Positions 5,932 to 20,318 of a stretch of DNA of 64,000 nt are shown in pieces; the stretch's first letter is position 1, and each line of letters starts with the position of its first letter. Below the pieces are notes generated by a model. The model was given only the letters and a program-made list of their open reading frames with translations, made no database searches and was not told the origin of the DNA. The stretch covers positions 80,921 through 144,920 of the forward strand of contig JACPKU010000006.1 in the NCBI GenBank assembly GCA_016186915.1. The letters are read 5' to 3'. Source of the stretch: Candidatus Doudnabacteria bacterium. Its GTDB lineage: Bacteria; Patescibacteriota; Doudnabacteria; UBA920; O2-02-FULL-48-8. The position numbers and the translations under genes were made by a program.

Positions 5932-7935
5932 ATGTTTAAACAACTGCAATTTATCCTAATTTTTACAATGGTTTTGTCAGTGGCAGCTCCAGCGGCTGCA
6001 GCGCCTTTAGATATTTTTGGCAATAATGGAACAGAAATATTGGTTAAACTGAAAGATTCCACTGAAAGCAGTTTAGAGTCTGTTTTGGCTCGACACCAAG
6101 TGGCCGGTTTACGCAGTCATTTGCGCGGAATCAGGGCCTTGAGTTTTTCGTCTTCGGTTAATTTAAGCGCCAAACTAGCGGCGCTTAACGCCGATCCAGA
6201 CGTAGAGTTTGCCGAACCGAATTACACGGCTCATGCTTATTCCCTGCCTAATGATCAGTATTTTAATTATCAATGGAACATGGGTACAGCCGGCCTGAAT
6301 ATGCCTGAAGTTTGGAATCAGGCCACAGGCTTGGGCGCGGTGGTGGCAGTGATTGACACCGGGGTGGCCTATGAAAACTACCGCAGTTTTATCAAAGCTT
6401 CAGATTTCGAAAATACCAGATTTGTTCCCGGATATAATTTTGTCCGAAACTTCAGTCATGCCAATGACGATAATGGCCACGGCACGCATGTAGCAGGGAC
6501 AATTGCCCAAAGTACTAACAACGGCACAGGAGTGGCCGGAATGGCTTATAACGCCCAAATTATGCCTCTCAAGGCCCTAGATTCAGCAGGTTCCGGCAAA
6601 TATTCCGATATAGCCGATGCTATAGTTTGGGCCGCTGACCGCGGAGCAAATATCATCAACCTCAGTCTTGGCGGGCCTTATCCATCAGAAACAATGCGTC
6701 AGGCTTTGGAATATGCGAAATCAAAAGGGGTTTTGATTGTGGCGGCCACAGGAAATGACGGGGCCAAATCTGTGGGCTACCCAGCGGCTTATGATGATTA
6801 TGTTTTGGCAGTGGGCGCAACCAGATACGACAAGACAGTTACAGCTTACAGCAACCAAGGCCAAGCCTTGGACGTAGTAGCCCCCGGCGGGGATACGAAG
6901 GTGGATCAGGATGGCAATGGCTATGGGGACGGGATTTTACAGCAGACGTTTACCTCGGGTCCCAAAAATATGGGATATTTCTTTTTCCAAGGCACGTCCA
7001 TGGCCACCCCGCACGTGGCAGGATTAGCAGCCCTACTAGTTGAAAAGGGGATTACTAATCCAGATGAATTGCAAAACATAATCCAGGCTTCAGCTGACAA
7101 TTTATATACTTCAGGCTGGGATTCTGCTTCTGGTTGGGGACTTATTAATCCGCTCAAGGCGTTGGAGTTAGCAGTGGAAAACCAAGCAGAAACCATTCCG
7201 GACCCTGATCCGGAATCTGATTCTGGGGAAGATCCTGCATCAAGTGCGGGATGGGAAGAGGAACCTCAAGTGTCAGAACCTGAGCAACAGCCTGAACCTA
7301 ACAAAAAACCTGTTGCTAAATTTAATAGTCAATCAGAGGGGTTGATAGGCGAAGCCATAAATTTTGACGCCTCTGCTTCCACAGACGAGGACGGCAGTAT
7401 TACCAATTTTGCCTGGGATTTTGGGGACGGCTCATCTGCCAGCGGTGCGAAAATAAGCCATAGTTATTCAAAATCCGGCACATATCTCGCAACTCTTACA
7501 GTTACTGACAATGCCCAGGATTCAGCCAGTTTTTCCGCGAATATCAAAATTCTAGAGCCAGAGCAGAAGAAATTTATGCATGTGTCAAGTATTGATCTGG
7601 CTGCCCGGGGCAGTTTTCTTAGAATCAGCGCCAGCGCTACTGTCAAAATCACTGATTCACAAGGAAAACCAGTAAGAAATGCCACGGTTTCAGGGCAATG
7701 GGATGGCTTATCCAGCGGCTCCCAAACTCTCAACACCAACTCCAGAGGCGAAGCAACTTTTTCTTCAGACCGGATTTGGCGCCAATCAGGAGAATTTATA
7801 TTTTCTGTCAAATCAGTGAGCCACGAAGAGTATGAATATAATCCACAAAACAACGAAAAGTCGCGGGAATCAGTGCAGATCGGCAGTTCCAGATCATTCT
7901 CGCTCAGCGACAAAGTTCGCGGACTTATGAACTAA
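5932..7935 (+). CDS. secreted subtilisin-like serine protease (peptidase S8) with N-terminal propeptide and C-terminal PKD domain
   Basis: Signal peptide; catalytic triad motifs VAVIDTGV (Asp), HGTHVAGTIA (His), GTSMATPHVAG (Ser); PKD-like segment AKFNSQSEGLIGEAINFDASASTDEDGSITNFAWDFGDGS...TYLATLTVTDN. Confidence 0.9.
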   Translation: MFKQLQFILIFTMVLSVAAPAAAAPLDIFGNNGTEILVKLKDSTESSLESVLARHQVAGLRSHLRGIRALSFSSSVNLSAKLAALNADPDVEFAEPNYTAHAYSLPNDQYFNYQWNMGTAGLNMPEVWNQATGLGAVVAVIDTGVAYENYRSFIKASDFENTRFVPGYNFVRNFSHANDDNGHGTHVAGTIAQSTNNGTGVAGMAYNAQIMPLKALDSAGSGKYSDIADAIVWAADRGANIINLSLGGPYPSETMRQALEYAKSKGVLIVAATGNDGAKSVGYPAAYDDYVLAVGATRYDKTVTAYSNQGQALDVVAPGGDTKVDQDGNGYGDGILQQTFTSGPKNMGYFFFQGTSMATPHVAGLAALLVEKGITNPDELQNIIQASADNLYTSGWDSASGWGLINPLKALELAVENQAETIPDPDPESDSGEDPASSAGWEEEPQVSEPEQQPEPNKKPVAKFNSQSEGLIGEAINFDASASTDEDGSITNFAWDFGDGSSASGAKISHSYSKSGTYLATLTVTDNAQDSASFSANIKILEPEQKKFMHVSSIDLAARGSFLRISASATVKITDSQGKPVRNATVSGQWDGLSSGSQTLNTNSRGEATFSSDRIWRQSGEFIFSVKSVSHEEYEYNPQNNEKSRESVQIGSSRSFSLSDKVRGLMN

Positions 7936-8120
7936 ACTTCAACAGTTTATCCACAAATTATTAACTTCTCAAATCAAATTCTTAGAAAAACAAAAGAAAA
8001 CAAAGACTTTACAAGAAAATTAATTCAGGATATGGTTTTTTAGCGAACCGATATTTGTTTCAGCTGGCTTGTGGAAATCTAAACTAACCTTTAAGATAAA
8101 CTTCAAAGAAACACCATAAT

Positions 8121-10939: not shown

Positions 10940-10959
10940 TAATCAGTTTGGTCCTATCA

Positions 10960-13900
10960 ATGAATCCAACCATAAAACAGCTCAAGAAATATATCCAAGC
11001 CTTAGATTGCCGAGGCTTGGTTTGGTTGTTTTATGCCGGCTGTTTGGTGGGGTGGTTTGGGTATTTGAAGATTAAAAATAGGACCAATAGGTCGGATAGG
11101 GTTTATAGGTCGGATGGGTCGGGTAGGATTGATAGGATTTATAGGATTGATAGGAATAATAGGTCTGATAGGTCGGATAGGACAAATAGGTCGGATATGC
11201 CGGTGTCGGATAGGGTTTATAGAAATAATGAGATAAATAGGTCGGATAGGAATAATGAGATAAATAGGTCGGATAGGCCGGATATGTCGGATAGGTTTGA
11301 TAAGACCTATAGGACATATTTGACCTATAGGACTAATAAGACTTCTCAAGCCTTGCGTATGGTTAGGCACAAAAAAGCGTACAGCATACAGAGCATAGCG
11401 TATAGTTTTGAAAAAGAGGTGAGGGCACGGATTGCCGGGTTTGTGCTGAAAAACACTTCGGGAGAAGAGGTTTTGCCTGTGGCCTCAAACATCGCCTTAC
11501 TTGCTCGATTGCACTTCGTGTTTTTCAAAGAGCGGGCAAGCCTCGCTTATTTAGATATTAAAAAATACGCCCGCAGGCGATCACGGTATTATCTGCGCAA
11601 AGCCAAGAAGGTCTATGTGCCGGCCGGGATTAGTTTTGCACAAGCTGTGTTTAATCTGAGCTTGGTGGCGCTGGCAGTGTTCGGGTTTGTGGTGGTTATT
11701 ATCGGAAAAACTTTTGCAAAAATTGTGGCGGTGAGCATTGCATCTTTGTCATTGCGAAGCCGAAGGCTGCGGCAATCTTTCATCATGCTAAGTATTAGAT
11801 TGCTTCGTCGCTACCGCTCCTCGCAAAGACTTTTGATTATTCGTCTTCGCGAGCGATCGAAGATCGCGTGGCAATCTATTTCTAGACAAGGGTCCAGATT
11901 GCTTCGTCGCGCTTTGGTCGAAGCAAATCAGCTCCTCGCAATGGTGAGAGCGGCCTTGTTCGTCACCGTGCCATCGCGAGCGCGAAGCGCGAAACGATCT
12001 GTTCTGGAAAGCTTTGACGCGGCCAGAGAACAGAATGTAGTTTTGTATAAATACCTCAGGCACGAATATAAAATAACCAGAAACAGAATTAGACGTCGAT
12101 TTTATAAAAGAGTTGGGCAGATTTTGGTCTGTGCAAAGGTCACCTTCGTTGTAACAACGAAGGTGACCTTTGCAGCCTTACTGTTACTGTATATACGAGT
12201 GAATATACATTATTCCAAGCTAAATTCCACTTTAAGCCGGAAAGCTGCGTCGGCATATATTTACCTTTCACCAAGGGTTGCCCGGTTTGCCAGATTGAGC
12301 ATTGACCGGTTTGAACAGTCAGTCGGCGCCATGGGACGAGCGGTTTTGGCCGGGCTTGATTATTCTCAGAAACTTCTTAGTTTCTTGATTCGTTTAGGGC
12401 GGATTGGGCTGGCGTGGATGGCGGCAGTACTGGTCCCAGTGTCTGAATTTGCAGACATTTGGATTTTTGAGCCTGTCTTAAAAATTCTACAAAGAAAAAT
12501 TGGTTTTATCCGCAAAGCCATGGCGGCAGGGGTTTTGGTGTTTATGGTTGTGGGAAGTATCAGTCCGGCTTTGGCTGTGGTGGAGATCACGCCGCAATCA
12601 ATTGTGGAATTTACTGACGCTGATTTAGATCCGGAAAACCCGGTGCTGCAGCAGGAAGCAAGTGTTACGGGCAATGAGGGCAGTAATACTGTGGCGGACA
12701 TTCAAAAGAAAGTTGAGAAGATTGTGGATTCAGCGACAGGCGATGCAGACAGTTCTGATTCAGCGACCGCAGATGGCAACAGTGAACAGATATCAGATAA
12801 TAGCGCAGACCCTTCAACTTCGGCTGACGACCCCGCTCAGGGATCAGAAGGCGAACCTATCGGGGCCGAAGAGCCGGGATCTGATCCGGGACAGACCCCT
12901 GCTTCCGCAGGGATGGAAGAGAATGCAGAGATAGAAGAGGGCGCAGGGGTGGGAGAAGAAACAGGCTCGCTCTTACTAACGCCCTGCACGGTGTCCAATT
13001 CTATGGAATTGGACAGTGAGGGGTCGCCAGTGGAAGATGTCCAAGCAGACGGGTTATCAGAGGAGTTAGAGATTGTCGAAAGCCAAGCAGACGCTGCGGG
13101 AACAACTGATGCGTCGGAGCAGGTTGTTGCAGGAGACGATGAAGATGAATTAGATTCTTCTGTGCCGGGAACGAATCAGCACGACAGCGAAGCAGGAGAC
13201 GCGGAATGCGCTCAACAAGAGCAGGTCCAGGAACAAAGTGAGGCTGGGGTGCAGGCTATCAATCCTAATGACTCTTCACTTCTGGACAGTAAACAGATTA
13301 AGAAAAACATTGTCGAGATCGTCAATACCAACAGCATCAAAGTGACCAACCAAGTGGATTCGGGTTCTTTAACTGGCCAGAACACGGTTTCGGCCGGAGA
13401 CAGCGGGAAGGATGTATTTTTGGGCTCTGGCAACATCAACATTCACGCCAATGTTTTGAACGTGGTCAACACCAATTTGTATAATTCCAAGATTGTAGAG
13501 ATTGCGGAGAATTTCAACAATCTCACGGCCGATGTATTGCTCAACCATCCGGAAACCAGACCCGCGGAATTAACCCAGGATCTGGTTAATTATGTTTGCG
13601 GGTCGTCGCTGACTTGCGAAAGTTTGAGTTCGTTTAATTTGACCAATAAAAACAATGCCGAGGTGGAGAACAACGTCAATGTGTTGGGAAACAGCGGACA
13701 GAATCTCCTGGAGAACATCAAAGAACGGGGCACGATAAGAAGTGGAGACATCAATGCTTTGGTCAATGTTTTGAATATTGTAAATAGTAACTTGGTCAAT
13801 TCCCGCTGGACCATTGCCTCGATCAATGTGTTCGGGGACTGGGAAGGCGATTTGGTCCTGCCGTCCGAACTTTATTTTACTGACTTTTTCCAGCTGGGCG

Positions 13901-16900
13901 CGACTGACAATTCTGATATCAAAATTGAAGACATCAAAAAAGTTCTGATCAACGTCAACAATGACAATGACGTGGAGGTTCAGAACAACGTACTGGTCAA
14001 TTCTGACAGCGGCAAGAACTCGATTGAAGCGACCAAGAGCGCGGACGGCAAAGGCGGCGGGCTGGAAAACGACAAGATCGGCACGGGCGAGAGCCGCGGC
14101 GAGTCCAACGTAAAAAACTATGTCAACACCAACGTGTTCAACGGCAAGTGGTATCTGGGCATGGTGAACACTTTGGGTGCTTGGTCAGGGGACGTGTATT
14201 CTCTGCCAGAGCGAGTGGCGCTGGGCACCACGCCGACTGGTCTGTCCTTCTTCTCATCGAACAGCAAGGATTCAGATTTGGCTTATCAATTGTTTGAAGA
14301 GACGATTGCCGACATCAATCGGACCGACAACACTTTGATCGATATCCAAAACCAGAACAAAGCCAAGATCGTGAACAATGTGGATTTGGGCGTGCTGTCG
14401 GGTGAGAACGGCATTAAAGGCAATGAGATGAACGTAGAGGAGAGCAGCATCTTCTCCGGCAATACTTACGCGCTTGCCAATATTTTGAATTTTGCCAATA
14501 CCAATCTTATTAACGCGGATTTGAACATTGGCTTGGTCAATGTTTTCGGCAGATGGAACGGGAATGTGCTGTTCGGCTTTCCTGATCTGACGGTGAGCCA
14601 AACCACCAGGCAGGAATTCCCAAAAGAAAAGAACCAGCAGGTAATTTATGATTTGACTTACTCGAACATAGGATCATCCTCGATGATCGGCGGAAGTCTT
14701 GAATGGCATTATGACAGCAATTTACTGCGTTTGGATTCAGTGGATCCGGCAGTAAGTTATGAGAAAAAACTGCCAGGCGTGGTGGAGTTTGATTTGGGCA
14801 GGGTCGGGCCGAAGAGCAGTCGAACGCTGGCTGTAAAACTGACCACTCTCAAAGATCTGGCAGTAAATACCGAAATAGAGAGTTATGCCCGTGTATTTGG
14901 TTTGGGACCGGAGAGGGTGAAAGAGAACAATGAAAGCGTGTTGGTAACAAAAGCCACGACTACGACTGGTTCTTCGGGGCCCCCGCCAAGTAATGATCCG
15001 CCGCCAGGCAATGACCCGCCAGCGAATAACGATAACGGAAGCGATCCGAATAATGATGACGCGGCAGGCGGAGATAATAATCAGGAAACAGAAAACAGTA
15101 ATCAAGACGATCCTTCGAATGAAGGAGGTAGTGATCCGAACCAAGAACAAGAAGAGCAACCAGAAGAACAGCCGCAGGATGGAACACAAAATCAACAGCC
15201 GCAGGATAATCAGAGTTCAGATCCAGATAACAGTCAGCAAGAAAACAACCAGCAAGAACAACAGAATGACCAAAACAGCAACCAGAATAAGAATACCAAC
15301 CAGCAGCAACAGCAGAACAAACAAGGTCAGAACCAGCAGCAGCAAAATCAGCAACAGCAGCAAAATCAACGGACTGCTTCCGGGCTGATCCGGGTTTACA
15401 AAACCAGTAATGCCCTAAGCCAAGGAGTGAAGCCTGGTGAGCCGGTGGAGTTTACCTTGATCGTGGACAATGACGGCGTGGATGCGGTATTTAATGTGGT
15501 GTTGTATGATACGCTTAGAGGACCGGATGGCGCGACTATAACCACGCGCAAGTTCCCGCTGGGCAGGATGGAGTCGGGCGAGGAAGTGGTTTTGGTTTAT
15601 GAGATTGATGCCAATCCTTTTGCTCCTGCCGGCACTTACACCAACACAGCTTATGTTGAGGCCTTGAATTTCCAACTGCGGCCAATAAAGTCACAGTCCA
15701 CGGCCCTTAGCAGTTTTATCTTGATTAACCCCAATCCAGAGCCGGTGCCTGAAGATGACGAAGCTGAACTGGTTAAGGATAACAAGCAGGATGAAGAACA
15801 GCAGAAACAAATAGAAGAAGACAAGCAAGACGAAGAGCAGAAAGACGATTCTCTGGAGGAAAATGTTGGAAAAGACCAAGAGAAAGAAGAAGTGGGACTG
15901 TTGAGCGAGAAGGATAAAAACAAGCCAATCAACACAAATACCGTCAAGGGAGGGAGGTTCTCAAGAACCAACCCTGAAGCGAACGCGGTGGCTTCCGCTT
16001 CTCTGCCGTTTGGTGAGTTGACTCCCGCGGCACAAGCCGAGCTTATAGACATCATTCCGTTGTTGGAAAATTCACCTGTCCGCGAAGGAGTGAGGAGCGA
16101 TTCTGCCCGCCAGATGACAATGTTTGTAATCATCGCGGCCCTCATGGGTTTGGGCTACGCCGCGGCAAATTTGGTAAATAGGCTTAAACAAGCAAAAGTA
16201 CAAAAATTAACCAACAACAACATGCCAGGCAAAGACAAAATCCTGCTGCTGATCCTAGCTTTGGTGCTCGGAAACAACGGGATGGGCGCGGTTCTCGATA
16301 TTAATCTCAGTATTCCGACAGCGCACGCCGCAGCACAAAGCTGTACCACTCCGACCGTAATTTCCTTCCCGTTCGCAGTGCAGGGCAACACGGGCGGCGT
16401 GGATCTGAATTCGAATGCGAAAGTAACCGGCAATGTTTACTCCAACGCCAACATTAATGGACAATTATTCGCAAAGGTCATAGGGAACGCAGCGGCAGTA
16501 GGAACGATTACAGATACACAAGTGAGCGGGACAGCGACCACTGGCGCGGCGCCTGCAGGTATGCCGGCAGTGAACGCAGCGGATTGGAAAGCCTCAGCGC
16601 TCTTGGGCGGGACAACTGGCAGCGTTAGTTTTCCAGTCAATAGCAGTGGAAATAACTTGGGACCAAAGAAGATCGACGGCGATTTGATTTTGAATGATAA
16701 TTCCGAAGTGCAAGTTAACGGCACGATTCACGTGACCGGTGAGGTAGTGGTGGGTGCAAACGCTAAACTTCATGTTAATCCTGTTTTAGGATCTTTGGGA
16801 ACTGTAATTATTGCCGACGGGAAAATTAACATTGATGGCAACGGGCACGTGGATGGGACGGGGGGAGGCGGATTCATGCTCATGATCTCTTTAAGCTCAG

Positions 16901-19665
16901 GCAGTGACGCGATTAATCTACAGCCAAACTTTACCTCTTCCACCGCGGTGTTTTATTCGCTCAATGACGGGCTGATGGTCGGTTCGAACTCACAAATTGT
17001 AGGCGCCTATGGAGAACGTGTCACGGTGCAGAGCAATGCCAAGGTTTCTCACGTGCCGGGCTTGCAGTTCGCCACCTTTGTCTGTCCGCCGCCAGCGCAA
17101 ACACCTAACATCACCGTGACCAAAGCAGCAGACAAACCCTCAATACTTGCTGGGGAAACTATAACTTTTACTTTAGAAGTGGAGAATAGCGGGACGGTGG
17201 CAGCGAATAATGTTACGCTCACTGATATTTTATCACCTGAATTTGAGTTCGTCGGTTCAACGCCCAGTCCGACCACAACGATTGTGACCGGTTCTGGCAC
17301 AGAGTTGAAATACAGCTTAAGTGAAGTTGGGGTCAATGAAACTAAAACCGTAACGATTGAAGCCAAAGCGGTGAGCAGTATCACTACCAGCATAGTTGTA
17401 GAAAACAAAGCTGTAGCCACAGGTGACAATTTTACACCCGAAGACTCCAACACTGTTGACGTGACTATCAACCCTATCCCCGCACCAGTGATGCCAATAA
17501 TCACGGTGACAAAATCTTCTGACAAATCTACAGTCTTGGCTGGCGATACAGTTATATTTACTTTGGAAATAGCAAACAGCGGCACGGCGGACGCGACCAA
17601 TGTGGTGTTGAGCGATACTCTGACTTTAGAATTTGAATTTATCTCCAGCACCCCAAGTCCTACAAGCAATACGGTTACCGCGACCGGCACAGAGCTGACT
17701 TTCGATCTGGGAACCGTGGCGATGGGCAGCTCTTCCACCATTACAATTGAAGTAAAAACTGACAGATTCGAATATCGTAAATGTCACAATCGATCCTTTG
17801 CCACTGCCTCCTATACCAACCAATCCTGTTATCAATGTTACCAAATCCGCAGACCATCCATCAGTTACGGCTGGCGATACAGTTATATTTACTTTGGAAA
17901 TAGCAAACAGCGGCACGGCGGACGCGACCAATGTGGTGTTGAGCGATACTCTGGGTTTAGAATTTGAATTTATCTCCAGCACCCCAAGTCCTACAAGCAA
18001 TACGGTTACCGCGACCGGCACAGAGCTGACTTTCGATCTGGGAACCGTGGCGATGGGCAGCTCTTCCACCATTACAATTGAAGTAAAAACTGACAGATCG
18101 CAACCACTACTTTGGTGGAAAATAAAGCGGTGGCAGACGGCGACAATTTTGGATCCGAAGAATCGAACACCGTGGAGCTAACAATTAACCCGCTTTCTGG
18201 AGGCGGTGGCACACCCACGGGTCCTACGATTACCAAAAGTGCCTCAAACACATCGGTAGTCGCAGGACAGGAGATTACGTATACCATTGAAGTTGAAAAT
18301 GATTCGTCCGACACTTTGGTGGATGCGGCGGTAAGGGACATCCTGGACCAGAATCTTGAATTTGTTTCTGCTAATCCACCTCCTACTACCAACACGACTG
18401 TTTTGGGTGTAACCACCTTAACTTGGGAAATAGGCGATCTTGGCGTAGGAGAGAAGTTTACGATTGAACTAAAGGTAGAGGTAAAAAGCGGAACTGTTTC
18501 CGGAACTATTATTGAAAATGACGCTGAATTGAGCGCTGATCAGTTCAACCCCATCACTGCAGGTGCCCCTGACGTAGAAGTAACCAGTCCGCCATCCGGC
18601 GGCGGCAGTGGCGGCGGCGGCAGTGGCGGCGGCGCAATTATGCCGCCCCCAAACTATGAGGCAAATATGGAGTTTGTGTTTGCTGACCCCAAGGTTAAAG
18701 GTGAAGATTACGGGGAATCGGTAACCATTACCAACACTGGCAGTATAGCTTTGAGCCCTGGGGATTTGACAGTGACTTTTCCGCTAAGCCTGAACGTGGT
18801 CACTCTCAGTCCGTCTGCCATATCATTTGCAGGCAATGTCGCGACTTGGTCTGTCCCGGTAATTCCAGTGGGCGGCTCCTATACCGTGTCCTTCACCGTT
18901 AAACCCAATGCAACGGGAACCAATATTATTACCGTGGCCAATTATTACATTGGCACGCAACAGATCGCAGTAGCGAGCGCTTCAGAGAACGTGGGAGATG
19001 TGGCGGGGGAAACTGCGCCTGAACTTCCCAGAACAGGCGCGGGTGCGGCTTATTTGCTGCTTGTGAACCTACCACTGTTATTTATGAGAAGGCTGAAGAA
19101 AGCTTTGGCTGCTTTGTTTTTGTTGGCGGCTGGCTTCTTGGCGCTTAATTTTAGTTATTTTAAGGAAGTGGTCAGCTTTTCGCTCAACAAACAACGTCAA
19201 GAGCAGGAACAGCTTTTGGTGGAGGAAGAACTGCCGCCCAATACTTTGACCGTGCCGAGTTTGGGAATTATGGTGCCGATCATCCTTGATTCAGGCAGCT
19301 CTGAATCGGAATTTCAGGAAGCCTTGCGAAACGGGGTGGTGCATTATCCCGGCACGGCGCAGGTCGGGCAGGCAGGCAACAGTTATATATTCGGGCATTC
19401 ATCTGATTATTTCTGGAGCAGAGGGAATTACAAGACCGTGTTTGCGGTTTTGCCCAAGATCAATATTGGTGATGAGGTTATGGCTACAGATGCCGAAGGA
19501 CAAGAGTACTTTTATCAGGTCAAAGAGACCAAAGTCGTCGGCCCTTCAGATCTGTCAGTGCTGGAACAGGATTACACCAAGAAACGATTAACTTTACAAA
19601 CTTCGTATCCCATAGGGACGGCCTTGAAGCGGTTTATAGTAATTGCTGAACTGAAAGAAGAGTAA
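10960..19665 (+). CDS. giant (~2900 aa) surface protein: Arg-rich tripeptide-repeat N-region, TM/signal-like segment, acidic region, four ~85-aa Asn-rich repeats, DUF11-type repeats, LPRTG sorting motif, C-terminal sortase-like domain. Frame interrupted by a compensating frameshift pair at about 17760 and 18095.
   Basis: Track ORFs 10948..17967 (frame 1), 17798..18181 (frame 2) and 18112..19665 (frame 1) are colinear. Frame 1 is stop-free for 1570 nt upstream of the first clear signal-like segment (MAAGVLVFMVVGSISPALA at 12520), which is far beyond chance. DUF11-like units (VTKxxDKxxVLAGDTVIFTLEIANSGTADATNVVLSDTL) repeat. LPRTG followed by a hydrophobic segment and RRLKK. Nothing was checked by a domain search. 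Confidence 0.6.
11078..11340 (+). repeat. 9-bp tandem minisatellite (~29 units, consensus (g/a)ATAGGTCG) lying in-frame inside the giant ORF
   Basis: aataggacc aataggtcg gatagggtt tataggtcg ... read directly; encodes tripeptide repeats (NRS/DRV/YRS...). Confidence 0.9.
19084..19665 (+). CDS. sortase-like domain (possible independent start at ATG 19084) with Ser in place of the catalytic Cys
   Basis: MRRLKKALAALFLLAAGFLALNFSYF signal-anchor; IFGHSSDYF (sortase His motif); LTLQTSYPIGTALKRFIV aligns to the TLxTC...R signature with C->S (codon tcg). Confidence 0.6.
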   Translation: MRRLKKALAALFLLAAGFLALNFSYFKEVVSFSLNKQRQEQEQLLVEEELPPNTLTVPSLGIMVPIILDSGSSESEFQEALRNGVVHYPGTAQVGQAGNSYIFGHSSDYFWSRGNYKTVFAVLPKINIGDEVMATDAEGQEYFYQVKETKVVGPSDLSVLEQDYTKKRLTLQTSYPIGTALKRFIVIAELKEE

Positions 19666-19796
19666 TTTACCCCGTTAGAGGCCTTCGTGTTTATTAGTTT
19701 AAACGGCGATCGTCTCTGACAAGAAGCAGATTATAACGCTAAAAATTTTGGCGATCTGCCTCTAACGGGGTTAACTTTTGTTCACAGGAGCGGCCT

Positions 19797-19868
19797 TGTT
19801 AAATAGGACCAGCAAGGCCGTTTTTGTGTAATTAAAAAAACCACCAATCCTGGTGGTTTTTTTAATGC
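19797..19868. terminator. two consecutive terminator hairpins, the second bidirectional
   Basis: ggccttgttaaataggaccagcaaggccgttttt; aaaaaaaccaccaatcctggtggttttttt (A-run / hairpin / T-run) between the convergent sortase-fusion gene and rnpB. Confidence 0.7.
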
Positions 19869-20318
19869 TCTTCAAGCAATCGATAAGCCGAATTCTGTCT
19901 GACCTCGTCCCTTGCGGTACGGGGGAGATAATCATCTATCTAGCTCCGACGTTGCCATCGGAGTCAAGCTGCCAACCCGGTCCTTTAACGGACCCTATTT
20001 GGCATTGCACTGACAAGTAAGTATTTAGCCGTTTCATTTCAGCCTTAGGCTGAAACCCGACGAAGCTTTACGCGAAGTCGGGCTCGCTTATAACTGAAGT
20101 CGTCCGCCTACGCCAAAGGCTTCGGCGGACGCTTTCGGCTTTTCGGCCTCAAGCGTCACTGTTCGCAACTCTACCCCGACATGACGTCGGGGCGACGGGA
20201 ATTACCCGCTACCTGCAACTCGATAGACTCATGAGACTCCATCGAATTCACGTGTTCGGACTTTCCTCCCGCGTCAGCTTTGGGCTGACGGGGCGATTAT
20301 CTTGATTACTTAAAGAGC
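19867..20318 (-). ncRNA. rnpB: RNase P RNA (bacterial type A-like)
   Basis: On minus strand: P1 helix 5' GCUCUUUAAGUAAUCAAG pairs with 3' CUUGAUUGCUUGAAGAGC; universally conserved GGGAGGAAAGUCCG (P4 5' strand), CCAAAUAGG, GGCAGCUUGA, and ACAGAAuuCGGCUUAUCG (P4 3' strand) in canonical order. ~450 nt. Confidence 0.8.

Follow-up and report, generated by a model that had tools for sequence, protein, structure and literature searches.

An open reading frame (ORF) at positions 18112..19665 (plus strand) of a 64,000-nucleotide (nt) stretch of Candidatus Doudnabacteria bacterium DNA (contig JACPKU010000006.1, assembly GCA_016186915.1; hereafter the window) carries the tail of an LPRTG-type surface protein directly into a sortase-fold domain in which a serine stands in the place of the catalytic cysteine. 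Sortases are defined as cysteine transpeptidases, and it is their cysteine that sortase inhibitors target and on which "sortagging" chemistry depends. The finding is broader than in an earlier sequence-only reading of this DNA, as alignments indicate that the serine is a clade-wide trait and that the fusion is a conserved, lineage-specific architecture. The reading that we somewhat favor is that the locus encodes a self-contained substrate-sortase polyprotein, which would be arranged as a membrane hairpin and cut at LPRT/G by a serine-nucleophile sortase, with catalysis deduced rather than observed. A classification of sortases describes a His-Cys-Arg triad as common to all classes (PMC8703055), and Méheust et al. 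2019 report only that sortases are frequent in the Candidate Phyla Radiation (CPR; PMC6744442). No report of a natural serine sortase or of a natural sortase-substrate fusion was found in the literature, the coverage of which was incomplete, and earlier notice is possible. The serine-sortase group is apparently large and undescribed.

Translation of the window gives an ORF of 517 codons that is open from 18094 (Table 1). The substrate part at its 5' end matches DUF11 (Pfam, E=6.7e-19) and, weakly, CARDB (E=0.023), and leads through the residues GETAPE into LPRTG. The combination known from sorting signals, LPXTG followed by about 15-20 hydrophobic residues and a basic cluster, is found here as LPRTG, AGAAYLLLVNLPLLF and (M)RRLKK. 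Its position is unusual in that the signal is not at the extreme C-terminus and is followed by 187 more codons that run into the sortase, and the signal is likewise non-terminal in three related proteins (P0333, P0122, and P0128). The MRRLKK loop has two roles, giving the sorting signal its charged tail and the sortase its N-terminus. It leads into a second hydrophobic segment, ALAALFLLAAGFLALNFSYF, after which the chain continues as KEVV and a complete sortase domain. The sequence-only reading had described this order of LPRTG, hydrophobic stretch, RRLKK, second transmembrane segment, and sortase domain without a stop, and the window bears it out, as no stop codon is present between the sorting signal and the TAA at 19663-19665. 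The same reading had placed the arrangement at the end of a single "giant ORF", which is wrong; the ORF at 10948..17967 stops at 17967, and the LPRTG-containing ORF opens at 18094/18112. The fused protein has a public record, MBI2607559.1, titled "MAG: sortase [Candidatus Doudnabacteria bacterium]".

Table 1. Features of the substrate gene, the fused reading frame, and the adjoining hairpin, in window coordinates.
Feature	Position	Strand	Basis or remark
5' substrate part, frame 1	16222..17767	+	Predicted signal peptide, N-terminal domain, DUF11 unit 1, most of unit 2
Substrate segment in frame 2 only	17768..18098	+	End of a DUF11 unit and a near-copy (17831-18098) of 17500-17767
3' substrate part, frame 1	18099..19023	+	End of a DUF11 unit, a further complete DUF11 unit, Gly/Ser linker, CARDB-like Ig domain; Pfam
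LPRTG sorting motif	19024..19038	+	Translation; motif common to related loci
Hydrophobic segment 1, AGAAYLLLVNLPLLF	19039..19083	+	15 residues; read from the sequence as the membrane-spanning part of the sorting signal
Basic loop MRRLKK	19084..19101	+	ATG at 19084 is a possible internal start
Hydrophobic segment 2, ALAALFLLAAGFLALNFSYF	19102..19161	+	Sortase signal-anchor by alignment; helical, pLDDT >90 in the predicted structure
Polar linker from membrane anchor to catalytic domain	19162..19245	+	Variable in alignment; pLDDT 61-67
Sortase catalytic domain	19246..19662	+	Pfam, phmmer, AF2, Foldseek
His105	19396-19398 (CAT)	+	
Ser174, replacing Cys	19603-19605 (TCG)	+	
Arg183	19630-19632 (CGG)	+	
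Stop codon TAA of the fused ORF	19663..19665	+	
Hairpin ACCACCA-atcc-TGGTGGT, A run before it and T run after it	19840..19863	.	Direct reading; not listed by the terminator scan

Identification of the C-terminal domain relies on profile, structural, and pairwise comparisons. The Pfam Sortase model PF04203 covers residues 379-514 of the ORF with 85.8 bits (E=2.5e-24), and its scores of 85.8-88.7 bits lie above the cutoff of 26.6. Among the NCBIfam models, the generic TIGR01076 alone passes its cutoff (47-50 bits against 39.35), and no model for classes A-F or GN comes near its own. The best class score is that of class D (56-63 bits against cutoffs of 140 and 165), and scores are lower for class C (48-51 bits, cutoff 160), class E (46-50, cutoff 160), class GN (35-38, cutoff 158), and class F (22-25, cutoff 166). 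An AlphaFold2 (AF2) model of the last 193 residues has a predicted local distance difference test score (pLDDT) of 86 and forms a sortase barrel, and the top 50 PDB matches that Foldseek returns for it are all sortases (E 8e-12 to 7e-10). In phmmer alignments to the PDB sortases 4d70 and 8t28, the serine of LTLQT-S lies opposite the catalytic cysteine, the histidine of FGHSS opposite the catalytic histidine, and the arginine of LKRF opposite the catalytic arginine. The TLxTC cysteine of the sortase superfamily is absent, with Ser174 in its place, and the translation of the 193-residue sortase contains no cysteine anywhere. The sortase-like domain proposed from the sequence alone is confirmed by the profile match and by the likeness of the predicted structure to solved sortases (Foldseek ~1e-11), and the proposed exchange of cysteine for serine beside a histidine motif and an arginine agrees with the alignments to 4d70 and 8t28. 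The comparisons support a sortase fold in which the predicted catalytic positions are occupied by His, Ser, and Arg, and by fold and profile the domain is a member of the sortase superfamily that fits no named class.

The serine is not peculiar to the window. In a set consisting of the query and its 120 best homologues, Ser, His, and Arg occupy the three catalytic positions in all 121 sequences, which answers the question raised in the sequence-only reading of whether the serine is kept in orthologues. The 120 homologues are stand-alone proteins of ~150-245 amino acids (aa; mostly 180-210) from Patescibacteria metagenomes and metagenome-assembled genomes (MAGs), at most 64% identical to the query. 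An exhaustive search of 1.84 billion cluster representatives yielded 6624 matches, 124 of them at E<=1e-30; nearly all representatives down to ~E=1e-33 carry Q-T-S-[YW]-P, and beyond this value cysteine forms ([MI]-T-C-x-P) progressively dominate, with a few serine forms to ~E=1e-29.

The two forms were compared in 225 serine and 32 cysteine domains sampled out of 269 proteins. All 225 of the closest sampled domains read Q-T-S-[YW]-P, the cysteine relatives [MI]-T-C, and four positions separate the groups. Besides position 174 itself, these are Gln172 (100% of the serine group; Met or Ile in the cysteine group), Tyr175 (90%; Thr or Trp), and Tyr101, four residues before the histidine (92%; Phe or Val). 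GHSS, P.GT, and the arginine are common to both groups, and His105 and Arg183 are conserved in both clades. Asp108 of GHSSD was considered as a third member of the triad; it is invariant in 20 close homologues and failed the test of discriminating the serine from the cysteine clade.

Codon usage is informative about the history of the exchange. Among 82 genomic copies the serine is encoded by TCT in 30, TCG in 21, TCC in 18, and TCA in 13, with no AGY codon, a pattern that fits a single TGY-to-TCY change followed by long purifying selection. The earlier remark that the window's TCG lies two changes from any Cys codon is true and yet uninformative, since relatives use all four TCN codons and TCT and TCC are one step from TGT and TGC. 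The catalytic domain lacks any cysteine in 193 of 237 members of the serine clade, which argues that the nucleophile has not simply moved. That the serine is a fixed evolutionary trait of the clade and not an error is therefore a supported reading of the aligned sequences.

Among GTDB species-representative genomes, 165 stretches encoding a relative were detected, 80 of which were kept as related loci (L001-L080); the serine clade is also represented in more than 100 sequence clusters at 50% identity. Many of their titles name Doudnabacteria, Yanofskybacteria, or "Patescibacteria group", and many others are automatic (uncultured Saccharibacteria, Gammaproteobacteria) and are not trusted. As far as the record titles of these loci indicate, the serine clade is confined to Patescibacteria. 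One subgroup of longer serine sortases (~290-420 aa; P0334, P0335, P0337, and P0168, and loci L030, L039, and L078) has ~130 aa inserted after the membrane anchor and ahead of the catalytic domain; this insert contains bacterial thrombospondin type-3 repeats (PF18884) and a conserved FA(K/N)QQKGK(L/Y)F module.

The common ancestral state, missed by the sequence-only reading, is an arrangement of two genes, an LPRTG protein ending in a stop codon followed by a serine sortase. In 67 related loci, a same-strand ORF with an LPxTG tail terminates no more than 1.5 kb before the sortase (median gap 78 nt); the tail is made up of LPxTG, a run of hydrophobic residues, basic residues, and a stop codon. 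A looser scan for such C-terminal tails across all ORFs of the related loci gave 70 matches, 58 of which are LPRTG, usually after VLGATTE. With a conserved LPRTG substrate directly upstream in the 67 loci, cleavage of LPXTG between Thr and Gly with transfer to a cell-wall amine is the predicted activity. None of the 77 related loci with a traceable sortase frame contains a fusion, the open frame spanning 184-351 codons. In five loci the 3' end of the substrate gene overlaps the start of the sortase by 4-29 nt in another frame, so a small indel would be enough to weld both genes. A TAnAAT box occurs within 25 nt upstream of the ATG in 19 of 72 stand-alone serine sortases, against 3% at random positions, and a Shine-Dalgarno sequence precedes 8 of 82 sortase genes; the frequent box and the scarcity of Shine-Dalgarno sequences suggest that the stand-alone sortases have their own promoter and leaderless or short-leader transcripts. 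In L022, two serine-sortase genes lie in tandem (5962-6612 and 7036-7980), each preceded by a separate gene with an LPRTG tail (454 aa and 112 aa).

The loss of the defining nucleophile raises the question of whether these domains are catalytically dead. A pseudoenzyme of this kind would bind LPRTG as a retention, chaperone, or scaffold factor, or hand the substrate to another enzyme, without cleaving it. Apart from the missing cysteine, this is consistent with the absence of any cysteine throughout the domain in most members and with the sortase descriptions found in the literature, all of which assume the His-Cys-Arg triad. We consider it unlikely, as His105, Arg183, and Ser174 are conserved in 100% of sequences while all four TCN codons are in use, Gln172, Tyr101, and Tyr175 changed together with the serine and were then fixed, the neighboring substrates keep a strict LPRTG, and no second sortase occurs in 83 loci, except for the second serine-type copy in L022. 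An active Ser174 is favored because the three catalytic residues are invariant, three positions adjacent in sequence to the catalytic motifs co-changed and froze, the substrate motif is strict, and no other sortase lies nearby; even so, we rate the chance that Ser174 is an active nucleophile as about even.

The fusion itself recurs in three further assemblies, always with the same substrate family, at 74%, 53%, and 53% identity to the window. The closest (P0333, locus L083; NCBI GCA_030699765.1, JAUYLD010000014.1) matches the window protein at 74% identity along the full 517 aa, and the genes downstream of it (Bac_transf, Trp-repressor-like, glycosyltransferases, and Mur ligase) are syntenic with those of the window. 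The other two come from Logan assemblies, P0122 (L081, SRR22388016) with 919 aa and P0128 (L082, SRR22388352) with 673 aa, and both are intact from the signal peptide to the C-terminus of the sortase. The junctions read ELPRTG-AGAAYLLLVNLPLLF-MRRLKK-ALAALF in the window, DLPRTG-AGVAYLLLFNLPLLL-LRRLKR-ASAAVL in L083, ELPRTG-AGSAYLLLLNLPLIF-YVRKLKLMVSENVKK-AIASVA in L081, and TLPRTG-ANPLTLVAINFAMFLSF-SKRR-ILAFFA in L082. The order of motif, hydrophobic segment, short basic loop, and hydrophobic segment is kept in all four, and segment 1 is conserved as AG[ASV]AYLLL[VLF]NLPL[LI][FL] in L081 and L083.

The fusion is also old by the measure of synonymous divergence (dS). Between the window and L083, dS is ~1.2-1.3 or undefined (saturated), and the ratio of nonsynonymous divergence (dN) to dS is 0.13 across the 46 codons of signal plus hairpin and falls to 0.08 in the catalytic domain. 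With the N-terminal substrate region as query, tblastn matches (54-56% identity) came from the fused loci L081 and L082 only and from none of the 80 unfused loci. Because of this recurrence, the saturated dS with low dN/dS, and the restriction of the N-terminal domain to fused loci, the fusion reads as a heritable state of one substrate family, selected or at least long tolerated, and not as an assembly accident. The surface protein-sortase fusion first noticed in the window alone is thus found in frame in three diverged orthologues.

A sequencing or assembly artifact, in which the real genome has a cysteine codon or a stop after RRLKK, is very improbable. The same operon does contain two frame breaks (17767/8 and 18098/9), and the junction between the first two genes is stopless with an out-of-frame TAA after an A5 run. 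Such an error would not account for a serine that is universal in the clade or for fused orthologues in three independent assemblies (GCA_030699765.1, SRR22388016, and SRR22388352), and the other two frames around 19040-19100 yield no credible sorting-signal tail. A hidden frameshift that restores a stop in this interval was rejected, as the +1 frame ends in CCL* or TYHCYL* and the tail read in the +2 frame is acidic.

Domain identities, residue matches, the conservation of the serine, the recurrence and age of the fusion, and the LPRTG synteny rest on sequence and comparison; topology, cleavage, serine catalysis, and action in cis or in trans are what we infer. In the two-gene state common in Patescibacteria, the large secreted protein closes with (VLGATT)ELPRTG, a hydrophobic segment, basic residues, and a stop codon, and a membrane-anchored sortase of ~195 aa follows ~80 nt on. 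In a small lineage with one substrate family (signal peptide, SCxxPxVISFPFAVQ domain, DUF11 repeats, and Ig-like domain), the stop and spacer would have been lost, and the basic tail of the sorting signal would have become the cytoplasmic loop of a two-helix hairpin. The N-terminal signal peptide would export the adhesin-like part, after which hydrophobic segment 1 would stop the transfer, RRLKK would remain in the cytoplasm, and segment 2, the counterpart of the signal-anchor present in every stand-alone sortase, would re-insert and export the sortase domain. LPRTG and the catalytic domain would then both lie on the outer face, ~28 linker residues apart; this placement had been proposed from the window alone, and the alternation of transmembrane segment, basic loop, and transmembrane segment in four of four fused proteins fits such a hairpin. 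The sortase domain of the same or a neighboring molecule would cleave LPRT/G and pass the DUF11 surface protein to a cell-wall acceptor, leaving behind a sortase with two transmembrane segments and an N-terminal glycine. The domain would not be dead, Ser174 acting as nucleophile through an ester acyl-enzyme. A wider proposal, which we hold tentatively, is that the whole Patescibacteria clade consists of true serine transpeptidases with a rebuilt active site (Ser174, Gln172, Tyr101, and Tyr175) that anchor LPRTG proteins via an ester acyl-enzyme, and that the enzyme here is the C-terminal part of its own substrate, freed by the cut at LPRT/G. If true, the locus would be a natural, stoichiometric, self-anchoring surface-protein module.

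The serine could also be the nucleophile of a hydrolytic enzyme and not of a wall transpeptidase, in which case the sortase would act as a site-specific protease, shedding the surface protein or cleaving its own polyprotein. In favor of this, oxy-ester acyl-enzymes would be less prone to aminolysis than thio-esters, and a single cleavage suffices to part the fused halves. Yet serine acyl-enzymes of penicillin-binding proteins do transpeptidate, and the complete sorting signal (LPRTG, transmembrane segment, and basic residues) is kept as in wall-anchored proteins, which makes hydrolysis alone a rather improbable outcome.

Several observations weigh against a polyprotein processed by its own serine sortase. 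The activity of serine sortases is a prediction, and the catalytic cysteine of canonical sortases is regarded as indispensable. An AF2 model of residues 288-517, built with 39 homologues, did not dock LPRTG in the active site; in the same model the LPRTG region has a pLDDT of 52-59 and the two hydrophobic segments form one long low-confidence helix, so that it is uninformative on docking in cis. The fused sortase domains are not mutual nearest neighbors in a neighbor-joining tree of the 150-aa domain, which is star-like at ~50% identity, and a single origin of the fusion is therefore not proven from the sortase domain. Only four fused examples were found, and two metagenome scans added none, as neither a DNA pattern for LPRTGAG.AYLLL.NLPL nor a locus search with the junction alignment gave a match. 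A homologue search with the N-terminal domain of the substrate returned only distant (at most 36% identical) PilX-like CPR proteins of ~400-460 aa, none of them fused; the search missed even P0122 and P0128 and therefore says little on the frequency of fusion. The ATG at 19084 falls precisely where stand-alone homologues have their N-terminus, so independent expression of the sortase is possible. Finally, the substrate gene is twice frame-broken in the assembled sequence, from which the full polyprotein is therefore not translatable.

The frame breaks arise within the DUF11 array. The substrate gene starts at 16222 with the predicted signal peptide MPGKDKILLLILALVLG...AHA and the N-terminal domain SCTTPTVISFPFAVQ..., with DUF11 matched over 16222..17767 at E=4.5e-27. 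It is read in frame 1 (16222-17767), frame 2 (17768-18098), and frame 1 again from 18099, so the signal-peptide-like N-terminus, which is also present in the intact P0122 and P0128, is parted from LPRTG by two mutually compensating breaks, +1 at 17767/8 and -1 at 18098/9. Both directly follow IEVKTD and lie where the two copies of a 268-nt repeat end on their 3' side (17500-17767 and 17831-18098; copies 94% identical and 331 nt apart). Measured against a complete DUF11 unit, the first of these copies is short by ~65 nt and the second by 1 nt, and the two shifts therefore cancel. The first copy resembles a 64-nt deletion between AGAT microhomologies. The orthologue P0333 reads in frame over the 18098 site, and the 3' substrate part is 69% identical to it, with a dN of 0.24 and saturated dS. 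Because the downstream substrate still looks constrained relative to P0333, the breaks are either very recent mutations (pseudogenization, or variation in the number or form of DUF11 units) or errors in the assembly of the repeat. If they are real, the product would be only a sortase begun at ATG 19084 or a truncated protein. Programmed ribosomal frameshifting at 17767 and 18098 was rejected, as opposite shift directions are needed and no canonical slippery heptamer is present.

A related irregularity lies further upstream, where gene 1, a surface protein of >1,200 aa with a transmembrane anchor at its end, enters gene 2 in frame and without a stop (...NRLKQAKVQKLTNNN/MPGKDK, 16180-16230). A stop is present at this junction in the orthologues L081 (RLRRKT*) and L082 (RVRIKREEN*), and the window has a TAA that is out of frame by one position, directly after an A5 run. 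Because the orthologues keep the stop and the out-of-frame TAA adjoins the A5 run, gene 1 probably lost its stop by a 1-nt indel, real or erroneous, and this is not a second designed fusion.

These observations bear on the possibility that the locus is functionally still two genes, with the sortase translated alone from ATG 19084 or from the internal starts of relatives, the missing stop a tolerated accident, and the read-through product without a special role. The suggestion of an independent sortase starting at 19084 goes back to the sequence-only reading. It stands insofar as MRRLKK and the following transmembrane segment align end to end with the ~195-aa stand-alone sortases, for which two genes are the ancestral and prevalent state; moreover, with the substrate frame-broken here, only an internal start could yield a properly oriented sortase. 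L081 likewise has an ATG inside the basic loop, and L082 has one 9 codons upstream, within segment 1. It is weakened by the fact that the methionine is not conserved, being TTG (Leu) in L083 and without counterpart in L082, and that no Shine-Dalgarno sequence, TAnAAT (-10) box, or promoter-like site was found upstream of 19084. In addition, the junction frame has stayed open in four lineages despite saturated synonymous divergence, and the fusion co-occurs strictly with one substrate family. On balance, two separately functioning genes seem an improbable alternative to the polyprotein.

Comparison with known systems places the window enzyme within the sortases and apart from each described form. 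With canonical sortases (PF04203, MEROPS C60; classes D, C, and E especially) it has in common the eight-stranded beta-barrel fold, the N-terminal membrane anchor, the GH-motif histidine, the arginine near the C-terminus, the T-L-x-T-[nucleophile] strand, and a gene beside an LPXTG-type substrate; it differs in its serine nucleophile, in Gln at -2, and in scoring far below the class models. The cysteine sortases of Patescibacteria with a GHSS motif (P0220, P0237, and P0257; ...TL[MI]TC[TW]P.GT...R) are ~40-45% identical, have the same length and membrane anchor, and share GNxxxxGHSS, P.GT, and the arginine with the serine clade, whereas theirs is a cysteine with Met or Ile at -2 and Phe or Val four residues before the histidine. 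The three examined sit after rplJ-rplL without an LPXTG neighbor, in contrast with the serine clade directly after its LPRTG substrate. The closest cysteine-type relatives (TL[IM]TCWP; L084-L088) lie right after rplJ-rplL, beside a conserved opposite-strand gene of ~730-770 aa and with no adjoining LPXTG gene, a housekeeping-like context that is different from that of the serine clade. The stand-alone cassettes of an LPRTG protein and a serine sortase (L001-L080) belong to the same sortase clade (46-64% identity) and have the same LPRTG signal, gene order, and strand; in these, however, a stop and a spacer of ~40-100 nt or a short out-of-frame overlap separates the genes, the substrate families are others, and a TAnAAT box is often found shortly before the sortase.

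Two further parallels concern the principle of the arrangement and the nucleophile. Engineered self-cleaving purification tags combine SrtA, LPXTG, and target in one polypeptide, which cleavage parts. They are artificial, soluble, and cysteine-based, with the order enzyme-motif-cargo, while the window protein is natural, membrane-embedded, and serine-based, with the order cargo-motif-hairpin-enzyme. Peptidoglycan transpeptidases use serine in D,D-transpeptidases (penicillin-binding proteins) and cysteine in L,D-transpeptidases, and both types of acyl-enzyme (Ser-ester and Cys-thioester) can support transpeptidation of cell-wall precursors; there the exchange is between families with unrelated folds, whereas in sortases it lies within one homologous family. 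A large clade with a fixed serine would mean either that the fold supports another nucleophile or that a widespread class of sortase pseudoenzymes exists, and either outcome is relevant to surface construction in the CPR bacteria, ultra-small cells that live attached to hosts. A serine sortase would have no oxidizable thiol and, with its LPRTG specificity, could serve protein ligation. The natural fusion provides a compact test system, with signal, membrane hairpin, and enzyme in one polypeptide, in which self-processing could be read in a heterologous host.

The surroundings of the fused ORF contain a few additional features. A perfect 14-nt inverted repeat (ACCCCGTTAGAGGC, 19669-19682; GCCTCTAACGGGGT, 19758-19771) begins 4 nt past the sortase stop and encloses ~75 nt; Rfam matches in this area are weak and cover the second arm alone. 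On the minus strand at 19869-20312, the model for class A RNase P RNA of bacteria (RF00010) matches over its full length with 97.5 bits (E=3e-30), slightly below the gathering score of 100. This RNA gene converges on the sortase ORF, and the hairpin between them, common to both, looks like a bidirectional terminator. Within the 5' part of the open frame that begins at 10948, tandem 9-nt and 27-nt repeats (ATAGGTCGG-like, ~12 copies and more) occupy 11087-11296 and translate to NRSDR/IDRIY-like low-complexity sequence; the stretch may be non-coding. A few kb upstream of the surface-protein operon, a plus-strand gene at 5932-7935 encodes a subtilase (Peptidase_S8, E=4e-58) that is secreted and also contains a PKD domain and a prodomain like that of fervidolysin.

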